Shown one piece after another: positions 20,196-63,770 of a DNA stretch of 64,000 nt. A program made the translations under genes and the position numbers. Where the stretch lies: positions 20,501 through 84,500 of IMG/VR virus record IMGVR_UViG_3300020050_015887, one strand, 5' to 3'. The first letter of the stretch is position 1; every line of letters starts with the position of its first letter. The stretch is from a virus. Lineage: Duplodnaviria; Caudoviricetes. The notes under the pieces were generated by a model. The model made no database searches, was not told where the DNA came from, and was given only the letters and a program-made list of their open reading frames with translations.

Positions 20196-20567
20196 TTAGT
20201 CCCAAAGTTCAATTTGGGTTTTCTTTAATACCTTAACAAACCGCTGTAATATCTTAACCTGCATTGCAAAATGTTCATATCCATGATCAAAACAATTTGG
20301 GTGAATATGAGCCAATTCGTGTGCTAAAGTATCTAACAACAAACCTTTATACTCTTCTTTATACTTTTCTTTTTCTTTACTATAATTATGTGTTTTAATA
20401 GTGATTAAAAACTTACCGTTTTTATAATGAGTACAACCTTCTGTTTGAACTTCTTTACTGGGAATTTGTTTATAACCTTTAATTTTAGTTATTTTAGATA
20501 GGTCTATTAATCCCTCAGTTGCTTCTACAAAAGGAAGCATCCATTGTAATTCATTACTAATCTTCAC
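20196..20567 (-). CDS. HExxH Zn-metallopeptidase-like protein
   Basis: TLAHELAHIH...DHGYEHF. Confidence 0.65.
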   Translation of the reverse strand: MKISNELQWMLPFVEATEGLIDLSKITKIKGYKQIPSKEVQTEGCTHYKNGKFLITIKTHNYSKEKEKYKEEYKGLLLDTLAHELAHIHPNCFDHGYEHFAMQVKILQRFVKVLKKTQIELWD

Positions 20568-21220: not shown

Positions 21221-23353
21221 TTACTCCTTACCGTAAGCCGTAGCTTCTACGGCACTGTTGTTGGACACTACTACATATTTACAATTCTGTACAAATTCAT
21301 CGATATTACGGGCGTTTAAATAAGTCATACCGCTACGTAATCCACCCTCAAAGTAGTTCATTAAATTTTCAACACTACCAGACACGGGAATTGTATAAGA
21401 TTCACCCTCTGGCGCTCTAAAACTAGCAGTTTTGTTTTGCACTTCATATGAAGACTGAGAAGCACTTCCCCTGTAAATCTTAGATAAAGGTGACATATCA
21501 GCAATGGGTGCAGCACTCTCAATCGTGCCAGCCATTAAACGACCCATAAAAACCCCTTTAACGCCTAATGCCAGGGCTTTTGATAAATCTCCAGGGGTAG
21601 ACATACCCCCGTCTTGAATGAGCGTATAACCCGTTCTAGCACAATCTAAAATACAAGAAACCGAAGGGGTTCCTACCCCGGCAACAATGCGAGTTTTGCA
21701 CGCGCTATTATGAACAATTGCATTATTGGCAATAAAACTGTGAGTAGGACAATCTACTTCAATGTCATATGTTTCAACAATTTCATCGATTGTTGTATAA
21801 TTGTTAATTCTGACAATTTGGTAATTCTCTGTTAATTGAGAATTCCAGGTTTTAAACGTTTTAGCACGAAAAGAAGGTTTAATATTTGCTAATGTAGCAT
21901 TTTTTAAACCACCAACTGTTGGTTTTCTATAAGACTGACTTGGAAAATAACCATATAATAAATAATTTATAATTGCAAACAATTCTATTAACTGTGGTGA
22001 TGTATTTGTTAATACTAATTTACCGTCGTCCTCGTGACCATCACTGTCAATTAAACCATCAAAAATTCCACGTAAATAGTTATTATTAATAACTAAATAA
22101 TTATTTGGTAAATGTTTTTCTTGTTTTTTACCAAAATTAATCATTAATCTTGCCAATGGTAAACAGTTAGCATTAACAACAATAACGTTATTGATCTTTT
22201 TTGTGGTTACGTTAATGTTAAATACTTCTTTTAATGCGGTAGTTAATTTATAAACAATGTCCGTTTCGGTTTTATTAAAATACCAAGAAACTTTTCCGCG
22301 AACAGAATTTTTATGAATATTAACTCTTGAGTGACCATCACCCAAAAATGTTCCAAAAATATATCCCAAATTATACGAAGATTTAATTTCATTATTATAT
22401 TCTTGAGCTTCAAAAGATTTTGAACGAATTGAAAATTCTTTTAAATTAATTAAAAAGTTTTCTTTTAAATCGAATTTAATATTTTTTGGCATTAACAATG
22501 TGCTTTTTTGGGTTTGATCAATTCTTTGCCATTTATATTTAGAATCCCCACTTTTGGTTGATTTATCTAAAACATTACCCAAACCCACGTCGTTAATATT
22601 TTTTATTGTAGAATAATCACCGATCCAATGTCGATGATCGGGCGTAACGATCGTTTCTTTGTAAAAATTATTGTTTTTATATTTAACTACCGATCTGAAC
22701 CCGGAGTTTTTTGTTCCAATAACCTTTACCGATTGGCCATTTTTATTAATGACAAAATCACCAACTTTTACATCTTCAATATTTTTATAGGTAGCATTTG
22801 ACATTAACACTCGCGTTCCAGCAGCAAAACAACCAGGCCCTACACCAATCTTCCAAGCCGTTGGAATTTTACCACTTTTTTCAACAAACGTGTTAATTTG
22901 TCCACTATTATCAAAATTACCAACAATAATATCTACGTCAAATAACATTTTTAGTGCTTTAAATTGGTTTAACACCTTCTCTTGAGCGCCGTTGGCCACG
23001 TCAATTACCAAAGTTTCAGCGCCAGCGTGAACTAAAGCCTCTGCGCGTTCAATCTCTGCGGTTCCTACACCTACAGACACCCAAGGCTTAACGTTATTAT
23101 AAATACCTTCTTTAAAAAGAACAATATTTTGGTCAATAGTACAAAAACGATGTACCGTAGCAATACCACCTTGTTTAATAACAGCAGCAGATAATTGCGG
23201 CGAATAAACACTATCCATATTAGAAGCGATAATAGGTACTTGTAATGTTGTGTTGCCAATTTTAACACTAGTGTCTACGTCGGAACGTGATGAAATAGTT
23301 GTAAAATTTGCTGGCACTAGGGAAATATCTTTAAATGTTAAATTTTTATTCAT
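21221..23353 (-). CDS. guaC: GMP reductase / IMPDH-family enzyme (CBS-less, about 335 aa after splicing), intein-containing
   Basis: PIIASNMD; IDVANG (GuaC-like); GVGPG|SACKTR catalytic loop; DGG; YRGSAS; LRSGMTY. IMPDH not excluded. Confidence 0.7.
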   Translation of the reverse strand: MNKNLTFKDISLVPANFTTISSRSDVDTSVKIGNTTLQVPIIASNMDSVYSPQLSAAVIKQGGIATVHRFCTIDQNIVLFKEGIYNNVKPWVSVGVGTAEIERAEALVHAGAETLVIDVANGAQEKVLNQFKALKMLFDVDIIVGNFDNSGQINTFVEKSGKIPTAWKIGVGPGCFAAGTRVLMSNATYKNIEDVKVGDFVINKNGQSVKVIGTKNSGFRSVVKYKNNNFYKETIVTPDHRHWIGDYSTIKNINDVGLGNVLDKSTKSGDSKYKWQRIDQTQKSTLLMPKNIKFDLKENFLINLKEFSIRSKSFEAQEYNNEIKSSYNLGYIFGTFLGDGHSRVNIHKNSVRGKVSWYFNKTETDIVYKLTTALKEVFNINVTTKKINNVIVVNANCLPLARLMINFGKKQEKHLPNNYLVINNNYLRGIFDGLIDSDGHEDDGKLVLTNTSPQLIELFAIINYLLYGYFPSQSYRKPTVGGLKNATLANIKPSFRAKTFKTWNSQLTENYQIVRINNYTTIDEIVETYDIEVDCPTHSFIANNAIVHNSACKTRIVAGVGTPSVSCILDCARTGYTLIQDGGMSTPGDLSKALALGVKGVFMGRLMAGTIESAAPIADMSPLSKIYRGSASQSSYEVQNKTASFRAPEGESYTIPVSGSVENLMNYFEGGLRSGMTYLNARNIDEFVQNCKYVVVSNNSAVEATAYGKE
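21707..22831 (-). mobile_element. Intein with LAGLIDADG homing endonuclease (375 aa)
   Basis: Starts CFAAGTRV, ends IVHN followed by Ser; YIFGTFLGDG and LRGIFDGLIDSDG motifs. Confidence 0.93.
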
Positions 23354-26821: not shown

Positions 26822-27636
26822 TATTTACGGTCCTGAATTTCTTTTAATGTTGGAGCATATACCCCAAATTGTTCTACACAAACAGCAGCCGCCTTAGAAG
26901 CAAATTCAATTGCTTTGTTTAATTCATATCCGTTCATTATAGCATAAGTTAATGATGCAATACAAGTGTCACCACACCCAGTAACATCAACAACTCTAGT
27001 GCTTAGTGCTGGCATAGAATCAATAAAGTTTTGTTGTTGTGTTTTGGCGTGCATACCATTATCACCATCTGTAATAACAACAATTTGAGCATTAGTAATT
27101 TCAAATAGTTTTCTAAAAATTTTAGGCAGGCTAGTTTCTCCGGTAGCCGTTTTGGCTTCTTCTAAATTGGGTTTTAATAAATAACAATTTTTATAGTTAT
27201 TAAAATCTACATTCTTACTTGGATCAACAAAAGTTTTAATACCAGAAGAGAATACAGCATTATAAATTGCTGGAGTAAACCAACCCTTACCATAATCTTC
27301 AACAATAATAGCATCCGTGGTTGTTTTGTATAAGTTAATAAAATCTAAGATCTCTTGTTCAGAACAGTTTCTAGCGGGATAATCAACATCAATACGAGCT
27401 ATTTGTTTATCTTTTTCAAACACTCTAGTTTTAGTGATGGTGTTGCCATCTGCTTTTTCATGAACATTTACACCAAGTTTATACAAATTCGTAGCCACAT
27501 TATGAGACATTCCCCATTTTGTAATTTGATTATTAACTTTTAATACAGGAACAAGAATGTTTTCTGGTGATTGACGTGTGTGTTCGGTGTATAAATATAT
27601 ATCAGCGCACTGTTCGCCGAGTACCATGACATTCAT
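26821..27636 (-). CDS. PfkB-family heptose-7-phosphate kinase (HldE/RfaE kinase-domain-like)
   Basis: VMVLGEQCAD; VEDYGKG; LLKPNLEE; VVDVTGCGDT; next to gmhA. Confidence 0.8.
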   Translation of the reverse strand: MNVMVLGEQCADIYLYTEHTRQSPENILVPVLKVNNQITKWGMSHNVATNLYKLGVNVHEKADGNTITKTRVFEKDKQIARIDVDYPARNCSEQEILDFINLYKTTTDAIIVEDYGKGWFTPAIYNAVFSSGIKTFVDPSKNVDFNNYKNCYLLKPNLEEAKTATGETSLPKIFRKLFEITNAQIVVITDGDNGMHAKTQQQNFIDSMPALSTRVVDVTGCGDTCIASLTYAIMNGYELNKAIEFASKAAAVCVEQFGVYAPTLKEIQDRK

Positions 27637-27884
27637 TTTAATACACTTTCTAAATTAGAATAAAATTTATCATTAAAAAAATCATTTAATAACCGAACTT
27701 CTCGTTCAAGGAATAAAAGTTTAACTATTTCTGTATTAGTGTTTTGTTTTCTAAAATTAATATGATCTTGTAAATACCACCGGTAATCATTATTTAATGA
27801 ATTTAAAAATTCATCCAATTGTTCTTGTGTTAAAGTAACAATTTTGTCTTTACTTCCACCTGCTTGAAAAATTACATATTTCAC
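27633..27884 (-). CDS. C-terminal-tag family small protein
   Basis: Ends FYSNLESVLK; ATGA overlaps on both sides. Confidence 0.7.
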   Translation of the reverse strand: MKYVIFQAGGSKDKIVTLTQEQLDEFLNSLNNDYRWYLQDHINFRKQNTNTEIVKLLFLEREVRLLNDFFNDKFYSNLESVLK

Positions 27885-29363: not shown

Positions 29364-30566
29364 TTAAACCATCTTTACAGTTTTACCAACCTTTTTCAAA
29401 GGATGATCAACTTGTCCTTGTTTAGAAATAATCCAAAGGATGTTATTATTAAGATGATATTTTCTATTGGCTTCACCATAATAACCGTCCGTCAACACGA
29501 CCGTAAGATCTGGTTGAAGCTTTTCAACCGTCTCTAACACACAGTTTGGATCGGTACCACCACCAGTAATATCTTTAGAGTTTAAATCTTTGCGCAATTT
29601 GTATTTAATTGTGTTACGCATTGCTGTATCCCAAAAACTTAGCTTACAATCATTCTCACCAACTTTTAAGAAACCATCAATAACCTTTAAGCACTCATTA
29701 ATTTCTTTATATGAAATACTACCGGACACATCCATAAAAAAGTGAATGCTTGGTAATTTAGCTTTGGTTGTACCAGGAGCATAAACACCATAACGTTTAT
29801 TAGGCCGGTTCCATGTGCTTGCACGGTTTTTTGACGTTGCAGTTTTCTTAATACAAGCAGCTAAAATACGTTTATAGTCAAGCGCACCAATTTGGCTATC
29901 AATCTTTTGAATCAAATCCCGCATAAAATCTGGAATGTTGCTATGACCAAACTTTGTTTTATCAATAGTGCGTTCAAAAATATCTTTGGTTTGTTCTAAA
30001 AATTTACGTTTTTCACTCTCAGACAATTGGTCAAACCAATCGTGAACGTCAAATTCTCCACCCTCACCAGTATATTTCTTTAGTTCTTCTTTAGTTTCTT
30101 CAGTAAGATTTTCAGGATGTTCTAAAAGGTCTAGATACAACTCAAACAATTTTTGTTCAGGAAAAGGTTGTGGTTTCTTATTATCATCAATATAAGAAAA
30201 CTTCTTAACGTCAACACAATCAGCAGGCAAGCCTGGAATGTATTGATTAATTGCCATATCCATAGCAATGTTTAATAATTTTTTATCATTCTTTTCAAAC
30301 TCAAACGCTCTAAAAATATGTTGGTGAACAAAATGAAGAATTTCATGCCACAATACGGCACCACGTTCAACCGTTGTTTTAGCAGCAAACCATTCATAAT
30401 TGATTTCAATCCAAAACAATGCGCGTTCTTTATCGTACATTAACGCAGCAGTTGGAATACGATTTGTATATCGAATATTAACTTCTTGAATTAATGCAGC
30501 ATAGAATGCATTTTTCTTAGAAAGTTCGTAAATTGCAGATTCAAGATATTTGCTATCAAAATTCAT
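29364..30566 (-). CDS. HExxH metallopeptidase-like + VWA domain protein (DUF2201 type)
   Basis: VLWHEILH; NIAMDMAIN; MIDAS DVSGS; GGGTD; VLTDG. Confidence 0.85.
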   Translation of the reverse strand: MNFDSKYLESAIYELSKKNAFYAALIQEVNIRYTNRIPTAALMYDKERALFWIEINYEWFAAKTTVERGAVLWHEILHFVHQHIFRAFEFEKNDKKLLNIAMDMAINQYIPGLPADCVDVKKFSYIDDNKKPQPFPEQKLFELYLDLLEHPENLTEETKEELKKYTGEGGEFDVHDWFDQLSESEKRKFLEQTKDIFERTIDKTKFGHSNIPDFMRDLIQKIDSQIGALDYKRILAACIKKTATSKNRASTWNRPNKRYGVYAPGTTKAKLPSIHFFMDVSGSISYKEINECLKVIDGFLKVGENDCKLSFWDTAMRNTIKYKLRKDLNSKDITGGGTDPNCVLETVEKLQPDLTVVLTDGYYGEANRKYHLNNNILWIISKQGQVDHPLKKVGKTVKMV

Positions 30567-30700: not shown

Positions 30701-31756
30701 TTAGTCTTTTAGACGAGATTTTAGGTGTTCAGTAAGTTCTTTACTGCTACCAATGATACGCTCAGCCAACTTTTCTTCATTACGAACAAAACTTAGTTCT
30801 TTAATAAGAACAATAGCTTGGTCGGCTGGAATGGTGAGTAACACTTCTCTTAGCAAGTCATCAGAAATTTCATTTGTTTTAATGATATCCTTAATGGTGA
30901 TGCTAATTTGAGCGTTATTATACGATTTTGGATTGCTGTATGTTTCTAGGCGACCCAATGCCTTTTTCTTAGTTTTTGCATTAGCTAAATTCTCATACAA
31001 CACGGGTACTTCATTGTACAAGAAGCTGTAAAATGCATTACCGTAGTTATCACCAAGAATAGATTGAAATACTTCAAGTTCCATTTCTCGGGGAATACCA
31101 GCGGCTAATACACTATTTACTTGAGCAAAAGAACGTGGCGACACATACTTATTACCAGTGTTCTCAGCAACTTTTTCTGGGTTAACGTATTTCCAGATAC
31201 CACTTTGCACAAACATAACCAGACGTTCATCCCATTTGTTAACTTCCATATAATCAACAAACGTTTTTTGGTCATATTCTACTTCAAACATGACGAAACG
31301 ATTTTTAAGTGCGCTATCCATGACGTTAACATCATAGGATTCGGTTTCTGGGTTAATGGCACCAACAATCAACCATCCTTCGGGAAGATGGTATTCATGG
31401 ATCTTACGGTCGGTGAGAAGTTGCATAAACGTGTTCATAACGCTTGTAGTACCGCGATTGGGTTCTTCAAGTAGCAACACCCCTTCACCGGTAGTGGGAA
31501 GCCAGCTTGGTGGATTATGCACAGTAACTTGACGATCACCAACTAGCGTGATGCTAGGAAATCCAATGATGTCTGGTGCCTCAAGATATGCTGCACGCAA
31601 ATCAATAAATGGCATGTTATTTTCAGCACACCATTGTTGAATTACACTACTTTTCGCGACTCCTGGGGGTCCCACAAACAGCGGGTTAAGCAACCCCTTG
31701 GATTTACGAACATTTCTTGCCATGTCTAGAACGTTTTTAATTTGCGATGGTTTCAT
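30701..31756 (-). CDS. MoxR-like AAA+ ATPase
   Basis: VGPPGVAKS Walker A; LLLEEPNR Walker B; GAINP; DSALKNRF; SPRS. Confidence 0.88.
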   Translation of the reverse strand: MKPSQIKNVLDMARNVRKSKGLLNPLFVGPPGVAKSSVIQQWCAENNMPFIDLRAAYLEAPDIIGFPSITLVGDRQVTVHNPPSWLPTTGEGVLLLEEPNRGTTSVMNTFMQLLTDRKIHEYHLPEGWLIVGAINPETESYDVNVMDSALKNRFVMFEVEYDQKTFVDYMEVNKWDERLVMFVQSGIWKYVNPEKVAENTGNKYVSPRSFAQVNSVLAAGIPREMELEVFQSILGDNYGNAFYSFLYNEVPVLYENLANAKTKKKALGRLETYSNPKSYNNAQISITIKDIIKTNEISDDLLREVLLTIPADQAIVLIKELSFVRNEEKLAERIIGSSKELTEHLKSRLKD

Positions 31757-46785: not shown

Positions 46786-47038
46786 TAATAATATCCTCTA
46801 CACATCTATCAATTTGTTTTAGTTTAAAAAATTGCAATGTTCCTTCTAACCAACTTGGGTTTCTTATATAAAAACAATTATTTTCAATAACATCTTTTGC
46901 TATTTTCTCATATGTCCAAATGTGAGAATTTTTGGTTAACTCACTTATTTGTGCAATTTCTTCTGATGTAATACTTCCTTCATATTTTAATGAGGGTAAA
47001 TCTACAACAAATTTATGGATTATTTTTGACATATTCAT
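46778..47038 (-). CDS. C-terminal-tag family small protein
   Basis: Ends IDRCVEDIING. Confidence 0.6.
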   Translation of the reverse strand: MNMSKIIHKFVVDLPSLKYEGSITSEEIAQISELTKNSHIWTYEKIAKDVIENNCFYIRNPSWLEGTLQFFKLKQIDRCVEDIING

Positions 47039-47735
47039 TTACCGCCACAGCTGATGCCTGAGAAGTGCCAGACATACAAATATGTTTATAGCATTTATTA
47101 TTTCCATTTACAACAGTGGTTACAATTTTATTACCATAGTTTGAGTGTTTACTATAATTTCCAATAATGTGTAGATTTGGGTGTTTAATTCTTTTTTTAT
47201 AACAAGCGGGGTATGTATCACATTTTTCATTTAAGTTTAACCCTTCATTGCCTGCGGCTATAAAAACTTTTGTATTGTTGTTTAGTAATTCTCTAATAGT
47301 TTTTTCTTCAAGGCCGATGGTTGTGCCTCCGCTATAGCTCATATTAACAATGTCGGGTTTGTTAGTAACTAAATCAATTAAGGCCTTTTTATAGATATGT
47401 AAATTAAAATGAGCCATGGTAAACCCAATATTTAAATTTTGCATCTCTTCATAAAACCAACTAATTTGTTTTGTTTTTTCATAAAATATTTTCATCACTT
47501 GAATACAAACTTTTGTGGGGTCTAAGTCTTTAACGATTATACTAGCAATGTTTGTACCGTGGCCGTGGTCGTCGGTAAGAGATGTATAGGTATAGTCTTT
47601 ACTACCATCTTTGCAATAGTATTCTTTAAGGGTGTCTGGTGCAATACCAGTGTCAAGAATAGCAATTTTTAGGCGTGTCTCTGTTGCATACAAAGACAAG
47701 GGCAAGAACACAATTAATTTAAGTAAATTTTTCAA
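47013..47735 (-). CDS. Minimal secreted subtilisin-like (S8) serine protease
   Basis: Signal peptide; IAILDTG (D), GHGTNI (H), AAGN, SGTSQAS (S). Confidence 0.88.
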   Translation of the reverse strand: MKNLLKLIVFLPLSLYATETRLKIAILDTGIAPDTLKEYYCKDGSKDYTYTSLTDDHGHGTNIASIIVKDLDPTKVCIQVMKIFYEKTKQISWFYEEMQNLNIGFTMAHFNLHIYKKALIDLVTNKPDIVNMSYSGGTTIGLEEKTIRELLNNNTKVFIAAGNEGLNLNEKCDTYPACYKKRIKHPNLHIIGNYSKHSNYGNKIVTTVVNGNNKCYKHICMSGTSQASAVAVNEYVKNNP

Positions 47736-56823: not shown

Positions 56824-57204
56824 CTATAGTGTGATAAAGTACAGCCCGTCAACCTTGCTGTAGTTCTTCTCGGGTTGTTTATCCGTTGGGGTCCACTTAC
56901 CAACAGACTTAATAGATCCGTCTTTAAATACCAATTCAGCATGTCCGTCTGAATGTACTCTTAGATAGCACTCTTGATCAAACGTATCTGCCAATAGCTT
57001 GATCACGCTATTATAAGTGTTCTCTGCAACAATATACAGAGAGACTTCAGTTGATCCCTCATAGTTGCCCTCTACTAATTTAAAAGGCAGCTTATGCTTG
57101 TTAAGCAGCTGAATTAGTTCTTCAGTGCGGTGAAAATTCTCTCGCACACTAAGGGTGCTAAGTTCTGCACTTAATACAAAAGCTTGTTTTGTCACATTGA
57201 ACAT
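56824..57204 (-). CDS. SAM lyase (T3 SAMase-like) anti-restriction protein
   Basis: VLSAELS.L....N..R; GNYEGSTE.S; LADTFDQECYL; AELV; VGKW match the T3 SAMase motif order as recalled. Confidence 0.75.
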   Translation of the reverse strand: MFNVTKQAFVLSAELSTLSVRENFHRTEELIQLLNKHKLPFKLVEGNYEGSTEVSLYIVAENTYNSVIKLLADTFDQECYLRVHSDGHAELVFKDGSIKSVGKWTPTDKQPEKNYSKVDGLYFITL

Positions 57205-58012: not shown

Positions 58013-58975
58013 ATGAAAGAAAAAAACCTCCACTCATTAGTTGAAATTTGTCTTGAATGCGGAACTCAATGTGCCCTACATTCTTACACTACGGTATTTA
58101 GTAGTGCTTTACCAAGTATTCAAAAATCAATTCAAGATAAAAAAAAGAAACAGTTAGATTTAATAAAACGTAATGAAACATTAAGATTAAAACAATTTAA
58201 TAAAAAGAAACAACTAGTTAATAATATTGTATATGATAAAATTAAATGTCATTATTGTAATGAAATAAAATTAAGACTGACAGTTAAATCGAGGGATTAC
58301 ATTGATGAAACAGGTAGAGATTGGGTAGGAAAAAAATGTCCTAGTTGTAGAAGTATTGAATATCAAAAAAGAAAAGAAAATAGATTCAAAAATAAAAATT
58401 GTAACTATTGTAATAGTAACTTTACTGGTTTATACAGTAAAAAATATTGTAATGTTGGATGTCGTCGTTCAAATGAAAATATAAAAAGAACTATTAGAAA
58501 ATGTATTACTTGTCAAACCCTATTAGGTAATACAACCCGTTTAAAATGCTCTGCCTGCTATGTTCCTAAAAAAACATATCCTAGTAAGTCTAAGCCACCA
58601 AAAGCTGCGTATAACCAAACGTGCGTTAAATGCGGGGTTGTTTTTTTGGTCGCCCGGAAAAAGAAGTATTGCTCTCAAAAATGTAATAAAAAAGCAAACA
58701 CTAATCCAGCATTACATAAGATGTATAAAAAGTTACGTAAGAGAGCGGTAAAAAAAGCTAAACCTAAGTGGTGTAAATGGAAAGAAATTGTTGAGGTTTA
58801 TGTTAATTGTCCAGAAGGAATGGAAGTAGATCACATTCATCCATTAAATCATCCTGACGTATGTGGGCTTCATGTCCCTTGGAATTTACAATATTTATCT
58901 AAAGAAGATAATAATAAGAAATCTAATAGTTTTGACGGTACGTATGAAAATTTAGGTTGGAAAAAGAAATCATGA
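58013..58975 (+). CDS. HNH endonuclease with multiple Zn-finger motifs
   Basis: Seven CxxC and two CxxxC; VDHIHPL..CGLHVPWNLQYL...NNKKSN. Confidence 0.85.
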   Translation: MKEKNLHSLVEICLECGTQCALHSYTTVFSSALPSIQKSIQDKKKKQLDLIKRNETLRLKQFNKKKQLVNNIVYDKIKCHYCNEIKLRLTVKSRDYIDETGRDWVGKKCPSCRSIEYQKRKENRFKNKNCNYCNSNFTGLYSKKYCNVGCRRSNENIKRTIRKCITCQTLLGNTTRLKCSACYVPKKTYPSKSKPPKAAYNQTCVKCGVVFLVARKKKYCSQKCNKKANTNPALHKMYKKLRKRAVKKAKPKWCKWKEIVEVYVNCPEGMEVDHIHPLNHPDVCGLHVPWNLQYLSKEDNNKKSNSFDGTYENLGWKKKS

Positions 58976-59203
58976 TAGTAACTTCTCAACACTATTATTA
59001 ATTTTAACAAGTTTAACAGTTTCTAATACTTCAGGCCAAGTATATTTACCAATACCCCAATCACACCCAGCTTCATAATGTTCGAGTATATGTTCTTTAG
59101 ATGCTTCTTTGTATAATATTTTATGAACTTCGTAAGCTTCATCTATAGTTAATTCTATGTCTCCTATTAAACCTCGATGCTCTGATATAAATTTAATATT
59201 CAT
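58970..59203 (-). CDS. C-terminal-tag family small protein
   Basis: Ends INNSVEKLLS. Confidence 0.7.
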   Translation of the reverse strand: MNIKFISEHRGLIGDIELTIDEAYEVHKILYKEASKEHILEHYEAGCDWGIGKYTWPEVLETVKLVKINNSVEKLLS

Positions 59204-59493
59204 TTTAATAACCCATCAACATAATCAGTTGTGTGTTTGTCGTTTATTTCTTTTTTTAATGTTAGGGCTAGGTCGTATTCTTCTTTTAATAACCACCACA
59301 AAATATGTGTGTCGAACAATTCTCCGTATTCTTCAGATTCAATTTTATTTTTAAATTCTTTTACGCTCATGGTTTTATACTGGCTGATCCAAATATATTG
59401 GTCAGCAATATGTTTAATAATGTACAAAGCTTCTTCAAGGTTTTTCACCATAAACTTTGTGTCTTTATTCTCTGTACAAAAATAAAAAGTCAT
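59200..59493 (-). CDS. C-terminal-tag family small protein
   Basis: Ends TTDYVDGLLK. Confidence 0.7.
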   Translation of the reverse strand: MTFYFCTENKDTKFMVKNLEEALYIIKHIADQYIWISQYKTMSVKEFKNKIESEEYGELFDTHILWWLLKEEYDLALTLKKEINDKHTTDYVDGLLK

Positions 59494-59741
59494 TTTAATA
59501 ACCCGTCCACTGCCCTATCGACATTTAAATTGGATACATATTTTTCAATACTATCGCTATCTTGTGTGTTTGTTGTATATACACTATGATCATACTGTAT
59601 AGAACGCATGTGGGCCTCTATCCTCTCTTGTTCGAGAAAAGGAAATACTATTTGTATCATCTCAACATAATCTTCTTGGTTCATATAAACAACTTTTCTT
59701 ATTGTGTTGTTACTTTCGTATAAAATGATAGTGATGTTCAT
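59490..59741 (-). CDS. C-terminal-tag family small protein
   Basis: Ends VDRAVDGLLK. Confidence 0.7.
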   Translation of the reverse strand: MNITIILYESNNTIRKVVYMNQEDYVEMIQIVFPFLEQERIEAHMRSIQYDHSVYTTNTQDSDSIEKYVSNLNVDRAVDGLLK

Positions 59742-59992
59742 TTTAATATTTCCTCTATAGACCTATCAATTTTTTCATTTAATATCAAACCTTTAAGTTT
59801 ATCAACATATGTCGTATCTATTGATATGCTATTGTGTGAACGCAAAATTTGAATAACGGTTTCTTTATAAAAATTTGTTGGAATATTATACACTTGATTT
59901 ATTAAATGTTGTATTTGTTCTTCAGTAAAATATCCAATTGTTTTTACTTCGTCTGTTTTATTATCGTAATATGTCCAAGGATATAATTTCAT
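59738..59992 (-). CDS. C-terminal-tag family small protein
   Basis: Ends IDRSIEEILK. Confidence 0.7.
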   Translation of the reverse strand: MKLYPWTYYDNKTDEVKTIGYFTEEQIQHLINQVYNIPTNFYKETVIQILRSHNSISIDTTYVDKLKGLILNEKIDRSIEEILK

Positions 59993-60258
59993 TTTAACAC
60001 TTGCTCTATAGAATTGTTGATGTTTTCTTGTTTTATTTTCACTACTACCATTAATCTTTTATAAGAACTTTTATCGTCTGTGTGTATTGTAAAACTTCCC
60101 GTTTTTAAATCTTCTTTCCAAAAAGATTTATAATCTTCAATATTTCCCCATCTACCATCGTTTAAATTAAACACATATTGATATTCTTCTTCTGTAATAA
60201 ACGTTCTAAGCACTTCATTTTCGTTTTTATCATTTACAATTATTTTTAATAAATTCAT
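59989..60258 (-). CDS. C-terminal-tag family small protein
   Basis: Ends INNSIEQVLK. Confidence 0.7.
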   Translation of the reverse strand: MNLLKIIVNDKNENEVLRTFITEEEYQYVFNLNDGRWGNIEDYKSFWKEDLKTGSFTIHTDDKSSYKRLMVVVKIKQENINNSIEQVLK

Positions 60259-60707
60259 AAAGTGTCAATATATTTATCAACTTGAGTAGACATACGCATT
60301 TGTTTTAAAGCATCCTCAACAATTTTAATTTCTCTTTGAAAAATAGAACATTGTGTTTTTTCAGACATTCCTCTGGCCCACTCATCGCTTTCTTTTATCA
60401 ACGGCAGAATATTTAAATATTCTTGTTCTGTGCATCCAAAAATAAACGTCCCACTCATACTAACAAAACGATGTGTATATTTCATAACATATTTATAATT
60501 TTCCGGGGAGAGGTGAAACCACTGTTCTCCATTAACCCTTTCACCCACAGCATTTCTTTTTATCATATCTTTTAATATTATTGGGGTAGTTTTTTTGTAT
60601 ATGTCGTTAGAAAATTTTAAACGTTTTAAAATACTTAATATTTCATTAATATCAATAGGTTCAAATCGTTCAGATTTACACACATCATTTACAAAATAAA
60701 ATTTCAT
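60255..60707 (-). CDS. C-terminal-tag family protein (150 aa)
   Basis: Ends VDKYIDTL. Confidence 0.65.
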   Translation of the reverse strand: MKFYFVNDVCKSERFEPIDINEILSILKRLKFSNDIYKKTTPIILKDMIKRNAVGERVNGEQWFHLSPENYKYVMKYTHRFVSMSGTFIFGCTEQEYLNILPLIKESDEWARGMSEKTQCSIFQREIKIVEDALKQMRMSTQVDKYIDTL

Positions 60708-61075
60708 AACTTATCTACGTAATTATTAACCTTTTTATTAATCATGAAAGTTTTAAATGTTTTATAATCATGTTCAGACATTGTAATAATCTGAAACGTC
60801 CTTAAAGGCTCTAGGCTGTCTTTTCGACCGGGTATGTAGTACAACCCATCCACCCTACCAGGAAAATGCATTTCAAAGGCATTTAAATCGTTTATATGGA
60901 CAATTTTAACGTTGATGCCATAGCCCGTATGCAAGTCTATAACACAATATCCAAATAATAGCAATGATCGTTCTACAATTAGGAATAAAAAGCCTAGGGG
61001 TATAATTATAACTGCGGCAAATAATAATAAAATTAAATCTGCAAACACCATTCCTACATGTTTTAAGTAATTCAT
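60704..61075 (-). CDS. C-terminal-tag family protein with N-terminal TM
   Basis: Ends INKKVNNYVDKL. Confidence 0.6.
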   Translation of the reverse strand: MNYLKHVGMVFADLILLLFAAVIIIPLGFLFLIVERSLLLFGYCVIDLHTGYGINVKIVHINDLNAFEMHFPGRVDGLYYIPGRKDSLEPLRTFQIITMSEHDYKTFKTFMINKKVNNYVDKL

Positions 61076-61081
61076 TAAGCT

Positions 61082-61110
61082 ATTATATAATAAAATGAGG
61101 TTGAAATCAA
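61082..61110 (-). promoter_or_regulatory. sigma70 promoter, leaderless geometry, heading the leftward tag array
   Basis: TTGATT-17-TATAAT-6 nt-ATG. Confidence 0.6.
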
Positions 61111-61119
61111 ATAAAAAAT

Positions 61120-61371
61120 ATGTTATTATTAGGTATGATTTTTAAAACTACACATGGAAAAATTATCGGGGAAGTGCCAGACGGTGTTGGAATGGAAATA
61201 ATGGAAAGTTGGAGACAGGAATTTTATCCTGGTACTGTGCCTATTGGTTATGCTCCTGAAAAACATTTTTCTCAACCATGTTCTATGGTTTTTATAAAAA
61301 AAGAAGTTGACGAATATTATCTTAAATTAAAAATTGACAAAACTGTTGATATTATTATAGAAACATTATAG
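61120..61371 (+). CDS. C-terminal-tag family small protein
   Basis: Ends IDKTVDIIIETL. Confidence 0.65.
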   Translation: MLLLGMIFKTTHGKIIGEVPDGVGMEIMESWRQEFYPGTVPIGYAPEKHFSQPCSMVFIKKEVDEYYLKLKIDKTVDIIIETL

Positions 61372-61372
61372 T

Positions 61373-61663
61373 ATGACATTAAAAGAAAACGAAATTATTC
61401 TAACTTATTATGAAGATAATCCTTTGCAAGCAACGGAAGACACGGAAAGACATGTAATTGATATTATTAATCAAGAACAATTAACAACATTTATCGATAT
61501 ATTATGTAAAACAATATGGATAGGTGATAATTTTTCTACAAAACATATTGACCAAGTTATGAATCACATGGCAATAAGTTTAAATGACAAAGAACTTGAT
61601 GTGTATGAAAAATGGCAATTGTCAAAACAAATTGATAAAAATATTAACAACATACTAAAATAA
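61373..61663 (+). CDS. C-terminal-tag family small protein
   Basis: Ends IDKNINNILK. Confidence 0.7.
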   Translation: MTLKENEIILTYYEDNPLQATEDTERHVIDIINQEQLTTFIDILCKTIWIGDNFSTKHIDQVMNHMAISLNDKELDVYEKWQLSKQIDKNINNILK

Positions 61664-61664
61664 T

Positions 61665-61946
61665 ATGATAAAAATTTATTTAATAGATAAATCAGATGAT
61701 TTAACCTTTGTTTGTTCTTTATCTAAAACAAAAGCTATGGCATTATATCATGTGTGGTTGAAAAAACATGTAAATAGAGAAGCTTCATTTGAAACAATAG
61801 ACTATTTTGAAGCAACAACTAGTTTAAACAATCATTTATCTTTTCATGAAGATTATAAATCTACAATAGAAGAATGGCTTATTGCACAAAAAAAGATGAA
61901 AATAAATAAGAAAGTTAACAAAATAGTAGATAAATTATTGGAGTAG
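61665..61946 (+). CDS. C-terminal-tag family small protein
   Basis: Ends VNKIVDKLLE. Confidence 0.7.
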   Translation: MIKIYLIDKSDDLTFVCSLSKTKAMALYHVWLKKHVNREASFETIDYFEATTSLNNHLSFHEDYKSTIEEWLIAQKKMKINKKVNKIVDKLLE

Positions 61947-61948
61947 TT

Positions 61949-62206
61949 ATGGTGGACATTTACGCTGGTCATAAATTAAAAATACGAGTAAGTAATGCTA
62001 AATGCATAGAATTATATAAATTTTGGTATAGAAAATATAAGGGAGTAAAACGAATACCTAAATACGAATGGGTGCGTTCTGAAATTTATGAAGAAATCAA
62101 ACACGGGCAGTCTATATATGATATTGTTTTTGAAGATATTATTGACGAGTGGATTCATCAACAAAAGATGAGTAAAATTAATAGGATAGTAGATAAGCTA
62201 ATATAA
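61949..62206 (+). CDS. C-terminal-tag family small protein
   Basis: Ends INRIVDKLI. Confidence 0.7.
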   Translation: MVDIYAGHKLKIRVSNAKCIELYKFWYRKYKGVKRIPKYEWVRSEIYEEIKHGQSIYDIVFEDIIDEWIHQQKMSKINRIVDKLI

Positions 62207-62227
62207 TAGTAACATTGCGGGCTACTG

Positions 62228-62392
62228 ATGAAAAAGAAAAAACCACAACAACAATACAAAATTCCTTTAACTAACGTTTTGGCTAAGGCGTTAGAAGAAT
62301 TACATAAAAACGAATTAAAACGTAAAGAATTAAAAAAGAATAAAGAAAAAATGCAACGCATTAAAAATAATGTTGAAGATATTTTAAAATAA
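62228..62392 (+). CDS. 54-aa basic tag-family protein (not in ORF track)
   Basis: MKKKKPQQQY...MQRIKNNVEDILK. Confidence 0.6.
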   Translation: MKKKKPQQQYKIPLTNVLAKALEELHKNELKRKELKKNKEKMQRIKNNVEDILK

Positions 62393-62393
62393 T

Positions 62394-62636
62394 ATGGAAG
62401 TGATCATTACATTTGAACAAGATCCTACGGTACAGAAGAGAATGGACTTAGGAGAGTTTCAGCAATATGCTGAATATGTGTATAAGACACATAATAAGAA
62501 GAACTTTACAATGGTGTATAGAGTACATGAGGCTGTATTTGTTTGTAAGTTTAATAGTGCAGAGTTATTTGAGGCTACGTATATTAAGTTTAAAGAAAAT
62601 CAGTTTCATAAAAATTTAGAAAAGTTACTTAAGTAG
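62394..62636 (+). CDS. C-terminal-tag family small protein
   Basis: Ends FHKNLEKLLK. Confidence 0.7.
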   Translation: MEVIITFEQDPTVQKRMDLGEFQQYAEYVYKTHNKKNFTMVYRVHEAVFVCKFNSAELFEATYIKFKENQFHKNLEKLLK

Positions 62637-62861
62637 TTTATCTATTTGGTTGTTGAATTTAAGACCTCTAAGTTTTAACACTTCGTCAATAGCTTCTACC
62701 CAAACCTCAGCCCATATATAATGTTCGTTTGCTGGAATAAATGATGCTGGGGTAAAATTATTATTACCGGGAAGAAGTTTAACCCATAGTTTAAACTCAT
62801 TGTCGTTTAAAAACACTGTTTGTTCAATGTCATTTTTTCGTTTAATAATAAGTTTGGTCAT
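62625..62861 (-). CDS. C-terminal-tag family small protein
   Basis: Ends FNNQIDKLLK. Confidence 0.7.
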   Translation of the reverse strand: MTKLIIKRKNDIEQTVFLNDNEFKLWVKLLPGNNNFTPASFIPANEHYIWAEVWVEAIDEVLKLRGLKFNNQIDKLLK

Positions 62862-63121
62862 TTTAAAACGTCTTCTATTGTGTTAATAATTTGTTGTTCT
62901 TTGTTATATTTTATTAAATCTAAAATAGCAGCGTGATAAATACTTCCAATAGATATAAGAATTGGAGATTCTATATTTCTTTCAAGATCTCTTTCATAAT
63001 CTTCTTTTTTAAAATAATAATAATAATATTTATTTATTTTTATAAACGTATCGTAATCTTCTTGTCCATAAATGAGAAAACATTCTTGTTTGTTGCCTGC
63101 TTGTGCAATAATTCTTAGCAT
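62858..63121 (-). CDS. C-terminal-tag family small protein
   Basis: Ends IINTIEDVLK. Confidence 0.7.
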   Translation of the reverse strand: MLRIIAQAGNKQECFLIYGQEDYDTFIKINKYYYYYFKKEDYERDLERNIESPILISIGSIYHAAILDLIKYNKEQQIINTIEDVLK

Positions 63122-63191
63122 AATAAAAAAACACCGTTATATTAACATTTAAATATAGAGACAATAATAACTTATTATATCACAAGGTCAT

Positions 63192-63770
63192 ATGGATAGC
63201 AACTACTACAATATAGAAACAGGAAATTTATTAGAACTTTATAAACCTGGCATTATTGCGTTTATTAATGAAGAAAAGAAAGAAGCTTTTGTATCAGAAT
63301 GTAAGTGTATTGCAGAAGGTTTTTTAAGACATGTTACTATGATAAAAAAAGGTGTACATAAGATTGACACCCAAGAGTTTATTAATAATAAATGTCAAGT
63401 TATTAAGTTTGTAAAGAATGAACAAATGCTAAGATATGCTTATGCGGATGTTATTGAAAGTTTGAACAAGCAAGGGTATAAAATTATCAGTAGACACATT
63501 GAATATAAGGTTAAGGGTGTGGTTGACGTTGATTTTAGAACCACAGGTAAGGGTTATTTGTATTATGTGTATCTACATGCTCAAAAAGACCCAGTGAAGC
63601 TTTTGGGGGTATTTAACAGTGCGATAGACGGGGATGCGTTCATAAAACAACACTATCAAAACAAAAGGATATCAGACATGAACATCATTGTTGCGGATAA
63701 CCACCTCACCAAGTTTTACATTGACACTTATGAAGAAATGATATATAATAAGTTATTATTAGGAGTATAG
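63192..63770 (+). CDS. Degenerate GIY-YIG-like protein
   Basis: PGIIAFIN...AFVSEC...LRH follows the GIY-YIG layout without the canonical Tyr/Arg. Confidence 0.4.
   Translation: MDSNYYNIETGNLLELYKPGIIAFINEEKKEAFVSECKCIAEGFLRHVTMIKKGVHKIDTQEFINNKCQVIKFVKNEQMLRYAYADVIESLNKQGYKIISRHIEYKVKGVVDVDFRTTGKGYLYYVYLHAQKDPVKLLGVFNSAIDGDAFIKQHYQNKRISDMNIIVADNHLTKFYIDTYEEMIYNKLLLGV

Follow-up and report, generated by a model that had tools for sequence, protein, structure and literature searches.

A phage array of fifteen small genes whose diverse products end in a common C-terminal helix

An uncultured phage genome of 84.5 kb (G000) has about 38 small accessory genes scattered along it, around a fifth of its genes, and each of their products finishes in the same ten-residue amphipathic helix. 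These genes lie most densely at one end of the genome, where fifteen are contiguous. The fifteen comprise a phage-specific family in six copies, one tandem pair and seven unrelated bodies. We propose that the bodies are rapidly gained, duplicated, inverted and lost while selection retains the terminal helix, which would serve as a docking handle presenting all tagged proteins to one common partner. We give this explanation as a whole, covering the make-up of the array, its evolution, the docking helix and the common partner, a probability of roughly 0.5.

Results

Positions refer to the window, the 64,000-nucleotide stretch that was analysed (positions 20,501 to 84,500 of IMG/VR record IMGVR_UViG_3300020050_015887). 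The array occupies 58970-63121, is about 98% coding and runs as seven genes on the minus strand, six on the plus strand and two on the minus strand. All fifteen ORFs that an earlier note on this DNA had described as consecutive, in three blocks of alternating orientation, are present, including 62228-62392, and the ATGA overlaps of 4 nt (TCAT on the plus strand) said to chain the minus-strand genes occur at six of six junctions in 58970-61075. This first block holds two genes with singleton bodies, 58970-59203 (77 aa, ending VEKLLS) and 59200-59493 (97 aa, VDGLLK); three members of what we term family A, 59490-59741 (83 aa, VDGLLK), 59738-59992 (84 aa, IEEILK) and 59989-60258 (89 aa, IEQVLK); the singleton 60255-60707 (150 aa); and, as its first gene, 60704-61075 (123 aa), which has a hydrophobic, membrane-type segment at its N-terminus. 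The stop codon of 58970-59203 overlaps that of an HNH gene (58013-58975) within TCATGA. Beyond a divergent gap of 44 nt (61076-61119), the plus-strand block (61120-62636) consists of the singleton 61120-61371 (83 aa), whose true start may be an internal ATG at 61135, family A member 61373-61663 (96 aa, INNILK), the tandem pair B at 61665-61946 (93 aa, VDKLLE) and 61949-62206 (85 aa, VDKLI), the lysine-rich 62228-62392 (54 aa, VEDILK) and the singleton 62394-62636 (80 aa, LEKLLK), separated by gaps of 1, 1, 2, 21 and 1 nt. The last of these meets the third block tail to tail in a 12-nt overlap (62625-62636, TTACTTAAGTAG) that encodes L-L-K-stop on either strand. An ATGA overlap joins the two genes of that minus-strand block, the probable family A member 62625-62861 (78 aa, IDKLLK) and family A member 62858-63121 (87 aa, IEDVLK), the first gene of its block, next to a second divergent gap of 70 nt (63122-63191).

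The tag has hydrophobic residues at positions -10, -6, -3 and -2 from the C-terminus, Asn or Asp at -9, Asp or Glu at -5 and Lys at -4. Under a strict definition ([IVL][DEN]x[IVLAC][LI][KAEST]-stop) it ends 23 of the 166 likely genes of a greedy gene set, against 0.16 expected from its internal frequency, and none of the 253 ORFs rejected as spurious; a loose definition raises the tagged genes to 38 of 166. The earlier claim that every array gene is tagged holds in the loose sense for 15 of 15 and in the strict form for 11: the tag is two residues short in 60255 (VDKYIDTL) and 60704 (VNNYVDKL), one residue short in 61949 (IVDKLI) and two residues longer in 61120 (VDIIIETL). None of 20000 shuffles of gene order reached a run of 15 tagged genes. 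The codons for Ile, Val, Glu and Asp vary at the conserved positions, which indicates selection on the tag at the level of the protein. The proposal of a shared N-terminal plan fared less evenly. A hexamer pattern, h-[STDN]-x-[EDN]-x-h at residues 9-41, written after the examples had been seen, occurs in 6 of the 15 array ORFs (mean 1.06 in shuffled bodies; 0 of 2000 shuffles reach 6) and in 10 of 36 tagged small ORFs compared with 4 of 79 untagged ones; the plan can be upheld for about six array ORFs and not for the rest. In the same ORF comparison, a generic capping box showed no enrichment.

Family A consists of six array ORFs, drawn from all three blocks, and a dispersed seventh member on the minus strand outside the array (27633-27884, 83 aa). 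Leave-one-out profiles built on bodies trimmed of their last 24 residues, and thus of the tag, ranked five of the seven held-out members first among about 630 proteins: 59490 (1 of 625, E 0.011), 59738 (1 of 627, E 0.39), 61373 (1 of 637, E 0.0072; also the top non-member match to six-member profiles), 62858 (E 0.0005-0.0012) and 27633 (E 0.003-0.007). The last two are also linked by a phmmer match (E 0.005). Member 59989 ranked 4-6, and the weaker 62625, for which an Atlas model has a pTM of 0.60, was the best non-seed match to a three-seed profile (E 0.14) and ranked 4, then 45, when left out. An AlphaFold model of 59490 from the family alignment (pLDDT 86.2, pTM 0.70) has the elements b-b-a-a-b-a and a long C-terminal helix spanning residues 59-82, in which the tag comes last. 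A single-sequence model of 59738 (pLDDT 50) has the same b-b-a-a start and a helix at its end; the gain in pLDDT from 50 to 86 is not a clean control, because the first sequences of the two models differ. The junctions 59489, 59737 and 59988 carry 49-nt repeats at intervals of 248 and 251 nt, which suggests tandem duplication. Searched against 1.84 billion protein representatives, the family profile found its own seven members only.

The two copies of pair B align by BLASTP at 29% identity over 73 aa (E 9e-7). The seven singleton bodies showed no relationship by BLASTP, phmmer or hhalign, and their builds differ, including an N-terminal membrane helix (60704), a 150-aa protein (60255) and a 54-aa lysine-rich ORF (62228). 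When the nine array ORFs outside family A were compared with it by hhalign, the probability was at most 1.7%, the same as for untagged controls. The view of the array as one diverged paralogue expansion is therefore borne out for about half of it, family A by profiles and pair B by BLASTP, and fails for the seven unrelated bodies.

The array proteins, 60255 among them, have no Pfam, PHROG or PDB match; the sole match to 60255 among 5.8 billion clusters is a 97-aa fragment, 99% identical. G000 has 32-35 core genes in common with its relatives where these were counted (G001 and G007), and none of its tagged genes has a homologue in either. The array bodies have no BLASTP homologue in six related phage genomes (G001-G004, G006 and G007), which, with the retention of the tag at the protein level, supports the earlier description of a constant handle on variable bodies. 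That note had also named two outcomes that would speak against its reading as a paralogue expansion, the lack of a shared fold and an invariant array in relatives; instead, a common model of good confidence was obtained for family A, and the relatives show turnover. In G001, 32 genes end in K-x-x-E-[IV]-x-x-E-[VIL]-K-D-L-L-[KAS], with hydrophobic residues at the same positions as in G000 and the charges at -5/-4 swapped; all six Leu codons are in use where its Leu is invariant. Many G001 proteins have K-V-G-D-type N-termini that look SH3-like by eye. In G007, the uniform ends consist of a terminal Leu only (56 of 109 small ORFs), mostly TTA before TGA, which could in part stem from the ATGA overlap instead of a tag on the protein. 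No comparable uniform C-termini were found in G002 to G006. The tag is lineage-specific, yet its register is common to G000 and G001.

A promoter-like phage motif (TTATTTTAACATTTAnnTATAG) is found upstream of structural genes and of 58013 and 63192, but of none of the three array blocks; the copy upstream of 63192 lies on the plus strand of the 63122-63191 gap (TTAACATTTAAATATAG). Both divergent gaps contain sigma-70-like sites; these are consensus matches, of which the AT-rich DNA yields 76 against 55.8 expected. In 61076-61119, TTGATT-17-TATAAT on the minus strand lies 6 nt upstream of the ATG of 60704-61075, and the mRNA may therefore be leaderless; in 63122-63191, a minus-strand TG-TATAAT, likewise a consensus match, would serve the third block. 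We infer that the three blocks are short operons transcribed from sigma-70-like promoters in the two gaps. As the blocks lack the motif of the structural genes, the array genes are probably early. A SAM lyase gene (56824-57204; PF23780, E 2.6e-16) lies about 1.8 kb from the array.

The best candidate for the tag's partner, a tentative one that we judge less likely than not, is the phage's own MoxR-type AAA+ ATPase (30701-31756, minus strand; AAA_5, E 7.7e-8) with a protein that combines a zinc metallopeptidase (DUF2201_N) and a VWA-like part (DUF2201) and carries HEILH and DVSGS (29364-30566, minus strand). Among the related genomes, homologues of the ATPase occur only in G001 (37%) and G007 (44%); the VWA-peptidase family is present in G000, G001 and G007, and DUF2201_N was not found in G002-G006. 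Seven G000 genes occur in G001 yet are missing from G002, G003, G004 and G006, and of these the MoxR and VWA-peptidase genes alone are also in G007. Across the eight related genomes, only this pair matches exactly the three phages with uniform ends, a comparison of three genomes with five, several of them incomplete (64-100%). G000 and G001 are not sister lineages in PolB and primase trees. Each of the three VWA-peptidase proteins retains intact HExxH and DxSGS motifs, and in all three phages the pair sits amid tagged genes. In L043 and L044, phages that carry the same pair, no tag is visible.

Discussion

The tagged proteins could instead be one family so ancient that it has diverged beyond recognition, with the helix as its best-kept structural part, for example for self-association, and no common reader. 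Family A bodies are still related at 14-27% identity, their modelled tag lies within the fold, and the family A profile scores slightly higher on tagged than on untagged small proteins (Mann-Whitney p 0.015 in G000 and 0.0003 in G001). However, the tag sits on clearly different builds, among them membrane-anchored, 150-aa and lysine-rich proteins and the SH3-like-looking N-termini of G001, the hhalign result for the nine other array ORFs argues against common descent, and one would not expect a helix with a purely structural role to be uniform in each phage and yet differ between phages in its polar face. We consider this reading rather unlikely. A nucleic-acid signal in the conserved 3' ends, for translational coupling, recombination or transcription, with the peptide as a by-product, would fit the ATGA overlaps at many junctions, the 65-75% similarity of the tag-coding DNA copies and the bias of G001 codons -6 to -4 towards GTG AAG GAT, in which an AAGGA ribosome-binding site lies 9 nt upstream of the next ATG. 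The codon variation in both phages largely refutes it. Moreover, the tag is kept at operon or convergent ends with no following gene (58970, 62394 and 62625), and the only occurrences of the G001-type DNA pattern in other IMG/VR contigs are two single, chance-level matches. This is a highly improbable account.

Two further readings, both of which we judge improbable, give the helix a different destination. As a degron, it would let a protease clear early proteins at a set time; the protease could be host ClpXP, Lon, a tail-specific protease, the phage S8 subtilase (47013-47735) or the zinc peptidase. The ends LLK, VLA, LLA and LLS, and the hydrophobic-Leu-COOH ends of G007, resemble C-terminal degrons such as ssrA, which ends in LAA, and the phage encodes both an S8 peptidase and a zinc peptidase. 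Yet 10-14 conserved residues in a fixed helical register exceed the needs of known C-degrons, and the S8 gene is also found in the tagless G004. The degron reading overlaps with docking to a common partner if the peptidase is the VWA protein. Alternatively, the helix might be a virion-loading signal, by analogy with the capsid targeting of T4 IPI-III and Alt and with encapsulin peptides, in which a short terminal peptide common to unrelated small proteins sends them to one destination, as the helix would in G000; the tagged proteins would travel in the head and be injected along with the DNA. T4 IPI is an injected counter-defence protein, and the case for loading is one of logic, diverse small cargo with one short terminal peptide in an HK97-type phage. 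The T4 targeting sequence, however, sits at the N-terminus, where the prohead protease cuts it off at L/I-x-E, a site not seen here, and encapsulin cargo-loading peptides, though C-terminal, are extended, Gly/Ser-rich and non-helical. Unlike structural genes, the array blocks lack the phage motif and carry sigma-70-like sites, and some 38 cargo species are many for an 84.5-kb head.

Other systems resemble the array in part. The C-terminal clamp-binding tails of T4 gp43, gp33 and gp55, with an aromatic motif of the LDFLF type, likewise place a short hydrophobic and acidic C-terminal motif on unrelated proteins that meet at one hub, but they are confined to a few replication and transcription proteins, against about 38 tagged ones in G000. 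No clamp gene was identified in G000, and we know of no precedent for some 38 clients on a clamp-type hub. Like the array, the 26-gene host-takeover module of SPO1 (10.1101/569657) and the T4 hyperplastic regions lie near a genome end, beside anti-restriction functions, and are packed with small genes that are poorly conserved and look non-essential; these clusters are not known to have a common peptide tag, whereas every array gene has one.

Peptide processing of the FxSxx-COOH type, in systems that are linked to vWA-MoxR (Kaur et al., 2020; PMC7159879), likewise combines a zincin-like metallopeptidase with small, fast-diverging proteins that conserve a C-terminal peptide in a vWA/MoxR context. 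Those systems belong to bacterial conflict, have one or a few precursors with FxSxx, RxD or acidic motifs and often a radical-SAM enzyme (PMC7159879). In contrast, G000 is a phage with about 38 folded small proteins, a helical tag of different sequence and a peptidase fused to VWA; no radical-SAM gene was seen in it. Group 2.2 jumbo phages encode a MoxR AAA+ and metallopeptidase-vWA pair (Iyer et al., 2021; PMC7824862) with the same two-gene architecture as 30701-31756 and 29364-30566, AAA_5 followed by DUF2201_N with HExxH and a VWA-like part with DxSGS. The role proposed there is virion assembly and the processing of structural proteins, and no tagged small-substrate family is mentioned (PMC7824862), whereas in our set of genomes the pair tracks the tagged genes.

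Under our preferred explanation, docking to one common partner, the VWA or peptidase part of the candidate reader would bind the helix and the MoxR ATPase would remodel the complex, with possible clipping of the tag by the peptidase. The points that favour an anti-defence or host-takeover library under diversifying selection, as the earlier note had it, are confined to small size, orphan status, total turnover, sigma-70-like promoters and proximity to the SAM lyase gene. An effector role for the bodies is plausible, and our guess is that they would most likely act on the host, in take-over or counter-defence.

Conservation of the C-terminal tag

The 15 small ORFs of the array (window 58970-63121; seven on the minus strand, six on the plus strand and two on the minus strand) all lie at the coordinates and in the orientations described for them in the earlier note, with the ATGA overlaps as reported there. 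The same note placed a tag on every one of these ORFs; we found this shared C-terminal motif, modelled as an amphipathic helix, in canonical form on 11, with two ORFs stopping two residues early, one stopping one residue early and one running two residues longer. Aligned from the C-terminus, the tag reads [IVF] at -10, [ND] at -9, [NK] at -8, [IV] at -6, [ED] at -5, K at -4, [LVI] at -3, L at -2 and K at -1. Of 166 likely genes, 23 finish in its strict form, where 0.16 would be expected, and none of 253 rejected ORFs does. When gene order was shuffled 20000 times, 15 tagged genes in succession never occurred. Different codons are used at the conserved positions (ATT/ATA, GTT/GTA and GAA/GAG/GAT), and so it is the peptide that is constrained. 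A 12-nt overlap, TTACTTAAGTAG, between the convergent genes 62394-62636 and 62625-62861 gives L-L-K-stop whichever strand is read.

Protein bodies within the array

When the tag was trimmed, BLASTP and phmmer gave almost no matches between the array bodies. The exceptions were the pair 61665/61949 (ORFs are named by left coordinate), whose full-length proteins are 29% identical over 73 aa (E 9e-7), and 62858, which matched the dispersed gene 27633. We then built profiles of a family A from the tag-trimmed bodies of 59490, 59738, 59989, 62625, 62858, 27633 and 61373, holding out each member in turn, and ran them against a set of about 630 trimmed proteins drawn from six phage genomes, after removal of the 24 C-terminal residues. 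The held-out member ranked first for 62858 (E 0.0012), 27633 (E 0.0031), 61373 (E 0.0072), 59490 (E 0.011) and 59738 (E 0.39), sixth for 59989 (E 0.95) and 45th for 62625 (E 7.6); the outcome was similar with 14 residues cut. The nine array ORFs outside family A, among them a membrane-anchored protein, a 150-aa protein and a 54-aa lysine-rich ORF, gave hhalign probabilities of at most 1.7% against the family, no better than untagged controls. The suggestion that all 15 genes form one paralogue family is therefore true of the six family A ORFs and the pair 61665/61949, leaving seven singletons, and the proposed paralogue expansion accounts for 8 of the 15 genes.

An AlphaFold model of 59490, made from the seven-member alignment (pLDDT 86.2, pTM 0.70), has strands at residues 2-8 and 14-21, helices at 22-32 and 38-50, a strand at 54-56 and a long helix at 59-82 that finishes in the tag, which is helical and amphipathic in this model. 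The single-sequence model of 59738 (pLDDT 50) has the same initial two strands and two helices, and a terminal helix. Because the first sequence was not the same in the two runs, the rise in pLDDT from 50 to 86.2 is only suggestive as support for family A; the predicted structures do agree with a shared family A plan. The plan of two strands, a capped helix, a variable middle and the tag, which had been described for many of the array ORFs, applies to six of them, distributed over all three blocks. Neither Foldseek nor VIA-align matched the family A model to a known fold: Foldseek against PDB and BFVD gave a best E of 0.3 and TM scores of at most 0.43, and the best hit of a wide VIA-align search was T5 endonuclease (Z 4.8), with BTB/POZ and PB1 rows lower. 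Atlas models of 62625 and 59989 had weak neighbours (TM <0.5), which were not the same for both.

Repeats of 49 nt at gene junctions, spaced 248 and 251 nt apart in the array, lead us to infer a tandem triplet of family A genes. Copies of the family occur in both orientations, and one lies outside the array. We also considered an invertible segment around the plus block; a search for long inverted repeats found only short, tag-derived similarity (70-74%), and the idea was rejected. In a chain of tagged genes, an in-frame deletion or fusion would always leave a terminal tag, and such retention would allow bodies to turn over with the handle constant.

Genome setting and expression of the array

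The window covers bases 20501-84500 of the 84.5-kb IMG/VR phage record (G000). This record is rated 97% complete, and a 121-nt repeat at both of its ends (119/121 identical) indicates a circular or circularly permuted genome. The array sits at the switch point of gene direction, between a long minus-strand block of replication and nucleotide-metabolism genes on the left (13.2-58 kb) and plus-strand genes on the right that continue into the structural module. Its GC content is 0.278, compared with 0.331 for the whole genome. The HNH gene 58013 and the first array gene share their stop codons in TCATGA, and 1.8 kb to the left of the array is a gene for SAM lyase, an enzyme known to act against restriction. 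To the right, a perfect 18-nt inverted repeat, AATAATAACTTATTATAT, at window 63163-63180 and 63743-63760 flanks a 192-aa gene (63192-63770). Elsewhere, at 21221-23353, a 710-aa IMPDH/GMP-reductase-like protein is split by a Hint/intein region with a LAGLIDADG domain.

One promoter-like motif, TTATTTTAACATTTAnnTATAG, is specific to the phage and stands 13-140 nt upstream of gene 63192, the HNH gene 58013 and several genes of the structural module. Its sites are at window 7112, 55154, 57998 and 63142 on the plus strand and 17416 on the minus strand, with four more before the window start (genome 3612-13126), and it is probably the middle or late promoter of the phage. None was found upstream of the three array blocks. 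Sigma-70-like sites are present in both divergent gaps of the array: TTGATT-17-TATAAT stands 6 nt upstream of the ATG of 60704-61075, which may therefore have a leaderless mRNA, and TTGCTA-17-TG-TATAAT precedes 62858-63121. As consensus matches in AT-rich DNA, these are putative array promoters.

Searches for homologues and close relatives

None of the 15 array ORFs had a Pfam-A match above the cut-off or a PHROG match below E 1e-3, and a PDB sequence search gave no significant match (E > 0.1). Across the 52 tagged proteins of G000 and its relative G001, no Pfam family recurred; there were three isolated single-member Pfam matches (best E 4.8e-05), and none of these was to a named protein fold. 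Among 5.8 billion clusters, the sole match to the 150-aa array protein was one 99%-identical fragment, and the family A profile retrieved its own seven members only from 1.84 billion representatives. Searching 50,697 phage records with blastn and megablast for close relatives of the array gave no matches, nor did IMG/VR scans that took the SAM lyase and the 192-aa flanking gene as queries. The HNH gene found HNH-domain matches only, in unrelated contigs without tags, and one metagenome scan yielded a single 2.7-kb contig that ends before reaching the array. The phage collection contained no close cultured phage, the best PolB match being to Salinibacter phages at 28% identity, and in the literature we found no description of such C-terminal tags.

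Related phages and their C-termini

A PolB alignment identified ten related IMG/VR records at 47-57% identity, seven of which (G001-G007) were taken in full. Comparable ends occur on about 38 genes in G000 (I-D-K-L-L-K type) and on 32 in G001 (K-x-x-E-[IV]-x-x-E-[VIL]-K-D-L-L-[KAS]). Among the 109 small ORFs of G007, 56 have Leu as their last residue, and their runs reach about a dozen or more. All three genomes carry a MoxR ATPase and VWA-peptidase gene pair; G002-G006 have no comparable ends on small proteins, and the pair is absent from them. The tagged genes of G000 have no BLASTP homologue in the compared relatives (G001-G004, G006 and G007) despite 32-35 shared core genes (as counted for G001 and G007), so that body turnover is complete at this distance and the habit of tagging persists. 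The invariant array that would have contradicted the earlier note was not seen, the relatives showing turnover instead, and its description of a constant handle on variable bodies holds, the tag being kept at the protein level. The interpretation in that note is supported in part, with an effector role for the bodies as a candidate function.

In G001 (IMGVR_UViG_3300028581_000020; L009-L014), the invariant tag residues are K (-14), E (-7) and L (-2), and all six codons are used at the Leu positions. The hydrophobic register at -10, -6, -3 and -2 is identical to that of G000, whereas the polar face differs, with K-D at -5/-4 in G001 and [DE]-K in G000. The G001 codons at -6 to -4 are biased to GTG AAG GAT, which sets AAGGA 9 nt upstream of the overlapping start codon (ATG) of the following gene (L009/L010). 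The stretch that encodes the G001 tag thus serves as a ribosome-binding site too, so that a constraint on the DNA is added to that on the peptide; unlike it, the G000 tag contains no ribosome-binding site. As a DNA pattern, the G001-type tag was found by an IMG/VR scan in G001 only, apart from two single, chance-level matches on contigs with no other tagged ORF. Within the G001 record itself, GC content is about 0.40 up to 60 kb and about 0.55 between 60 and 100 kb, and some of the structural genes are duplicated (e.g. 62087-64027 and 100349-103198); it may be a chimeric assembly.

In G007 (IMGVR_UViG_3300020046_003652; L052-L055; 75 kb), the small ORFs are of 38-69 aa, and 12 more end in Ile. 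The Leu-ending ORFs form long one-directional runs, including 11 consecutive ORFs adjoining the MoxR and VWA-peptidase genes. Because the terminal Leu is mostly TTA (48 ORFs) before TGA (the stop in 41), the ATGA overlap, through a TTATGA junction rule, could be a partial source of these ends, as opposed to a peptide tag.

A MoxR/VWA-peptidase pair co-distributed with the tag

Seven G000 genes are common to G001 and missing from G002, G003, G004 and G006. Among them is an adjacent pair encoding a MoxR-type AAA+ ATPase (30701-31756; AAA_5, E 7.7e-8) and a DUF2201_N zinc-peptidase/VWA-like protein (29364-30566; DUF2201_N, E 3.6e-13; DUF2201, E 2e-11), and only these two of the seven are also carried by G007, at 44% identity. 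We classed them as a phage MoxR AAA+/metallopeptidase-vWA pair, that is, an AAA_5/MoxR ATPase beside a protein that combines an HExxH peptidase domain at its N-terminus with a MIDAS-bearing VWA domain at its C-terminus. The G000 peptidase has HEILH and DVSGS, and the HExxH and DxSGS metal site is intact in G000, G001 and G007. The pair sits amid tagged genes in all three, and Pfam searches of the whole records found no DUF2201_N in G002-G006. Neither the PolB nor the primase tree makes sisters of G000 and G001, and tagless phages branch between the two; thus, across eight genomes, some of them incomplete, tag and pair co-vary at more than one place on the tree.

Other candidate readers were rejected: a HAD phosphatase is absent from G007 and present in the tagless G005, and a P-loop 174-aa protein and proteins of 103, 96 and 77 aa are absent from G007. 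A 240-aa S8 subtilase (47013-47735), common to G000, G001, G007 and the tagless G004, is a second candidate processing protease. With the VWA-peptidase as bait, we recovered two phage fragments that are distant (26-27% identity) and show no clear tags in the vicinity, and the pair does not therefore imply tags. On one of these unrelated fragments, a single 79-aa ORF (L043:473-712) ends ...KKIREEVINLLGKND, which looks like the tag plus four extra residues.

Discussion

Several known terminal peptides offer themselves for comparison with the tag. The capsid targeting sequence of T4 is an N-terminal leader of about 10 residues with an L/I-x-E site for the prohead protease, on proteins with late or structural co-expression; a T4-type targeting sequence or set of internal proteins was rejected, since the tag is C-terminal and the array is without the promoter-like motif of the structural genes. 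The encapsulin cargo-loading peptide is C-terminal like the tag and binds the inner face of an HK97-fold shell, yet it is extended, whereas the tag is modelled as an amphipathic helix. The tag ends LLK, VLA, LLA and LLS bear a loose likeness to ssrA-like C-terminal degrons; in these the last 2-3 residues (e.g. LAA-COOH) suffice and no long conserved helix is needed, whereas conservation of the tag spans 10-14 residues in helical register. Sliding-clamp binding was set aside because an aromatic or glutamine clamp motif is missing from the tag, and membrane targeting because it is acidic to neutral, not basic.

Similar logic is seen in the bacterial vWA-MoxR conflict systems, in which a zincin peptidase accompanies small, rapidly diverging proteins whose conserved part is a C-terminal peptide (PMC7159879). 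In the FxSxx-COOH-type systems, a zincin gene is found with a small precursor bearing an FxSxx, RxD or acidic C-terminal peptide, and cleavage releases the peptide (PMC7159879). G000 likewise combines a zincin-like HExxH peptidase with variable proteins of conserved C-terminus, but its tag belongs to none of the published motif types. We regard these systems as a parallel to the G000 tag and pair, by analogy. In jumbo phages, the pair has been proposed by Iyer et al. to act in virion assembly (PMC7824862).

We tentatively propose, at a probability of about 0.3, that this phage clade has a protein-addressing system of its own, in which a lineage-specific helix on about one-fifth of the proteome is read by the phage-encoded MoxR/VWA-peptidase pair, with the array as the birthplace of its clients and with tag and reader changing together. 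The MoxR AAA+/VWA-zinc-peptidase machine would dock, remodel or clip dozens of fast-turnover accessory proteins, and the array (58970-63121) would supply new clients through duplication, inversion and fusion. Tag and reader would change jointly by lineage, the tag being I-D-K-L-L-K in G000, E-V-K-D-L-L-K in G001 and a hydrophobic-Leu end in G007.

Small orphan genes make up much of the 'dark matter' of phages, and a shared handle would give a single experimental grip on dozens of them; one tag peptide used in a pull-down would reveal their common partner. If that partner is the MoxR/VWA-peptidase pair, a gene pair that is widespread in phages, and whose role is unknown, would acquire a class of substrates. 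Lineage-specific terminal motifs could also flag the accessory gene sets of uncultured phages. The array, with its one-phage family, tandem pair and unrelated bodies under one shared constraint, is a natural system for the study of gene birth.
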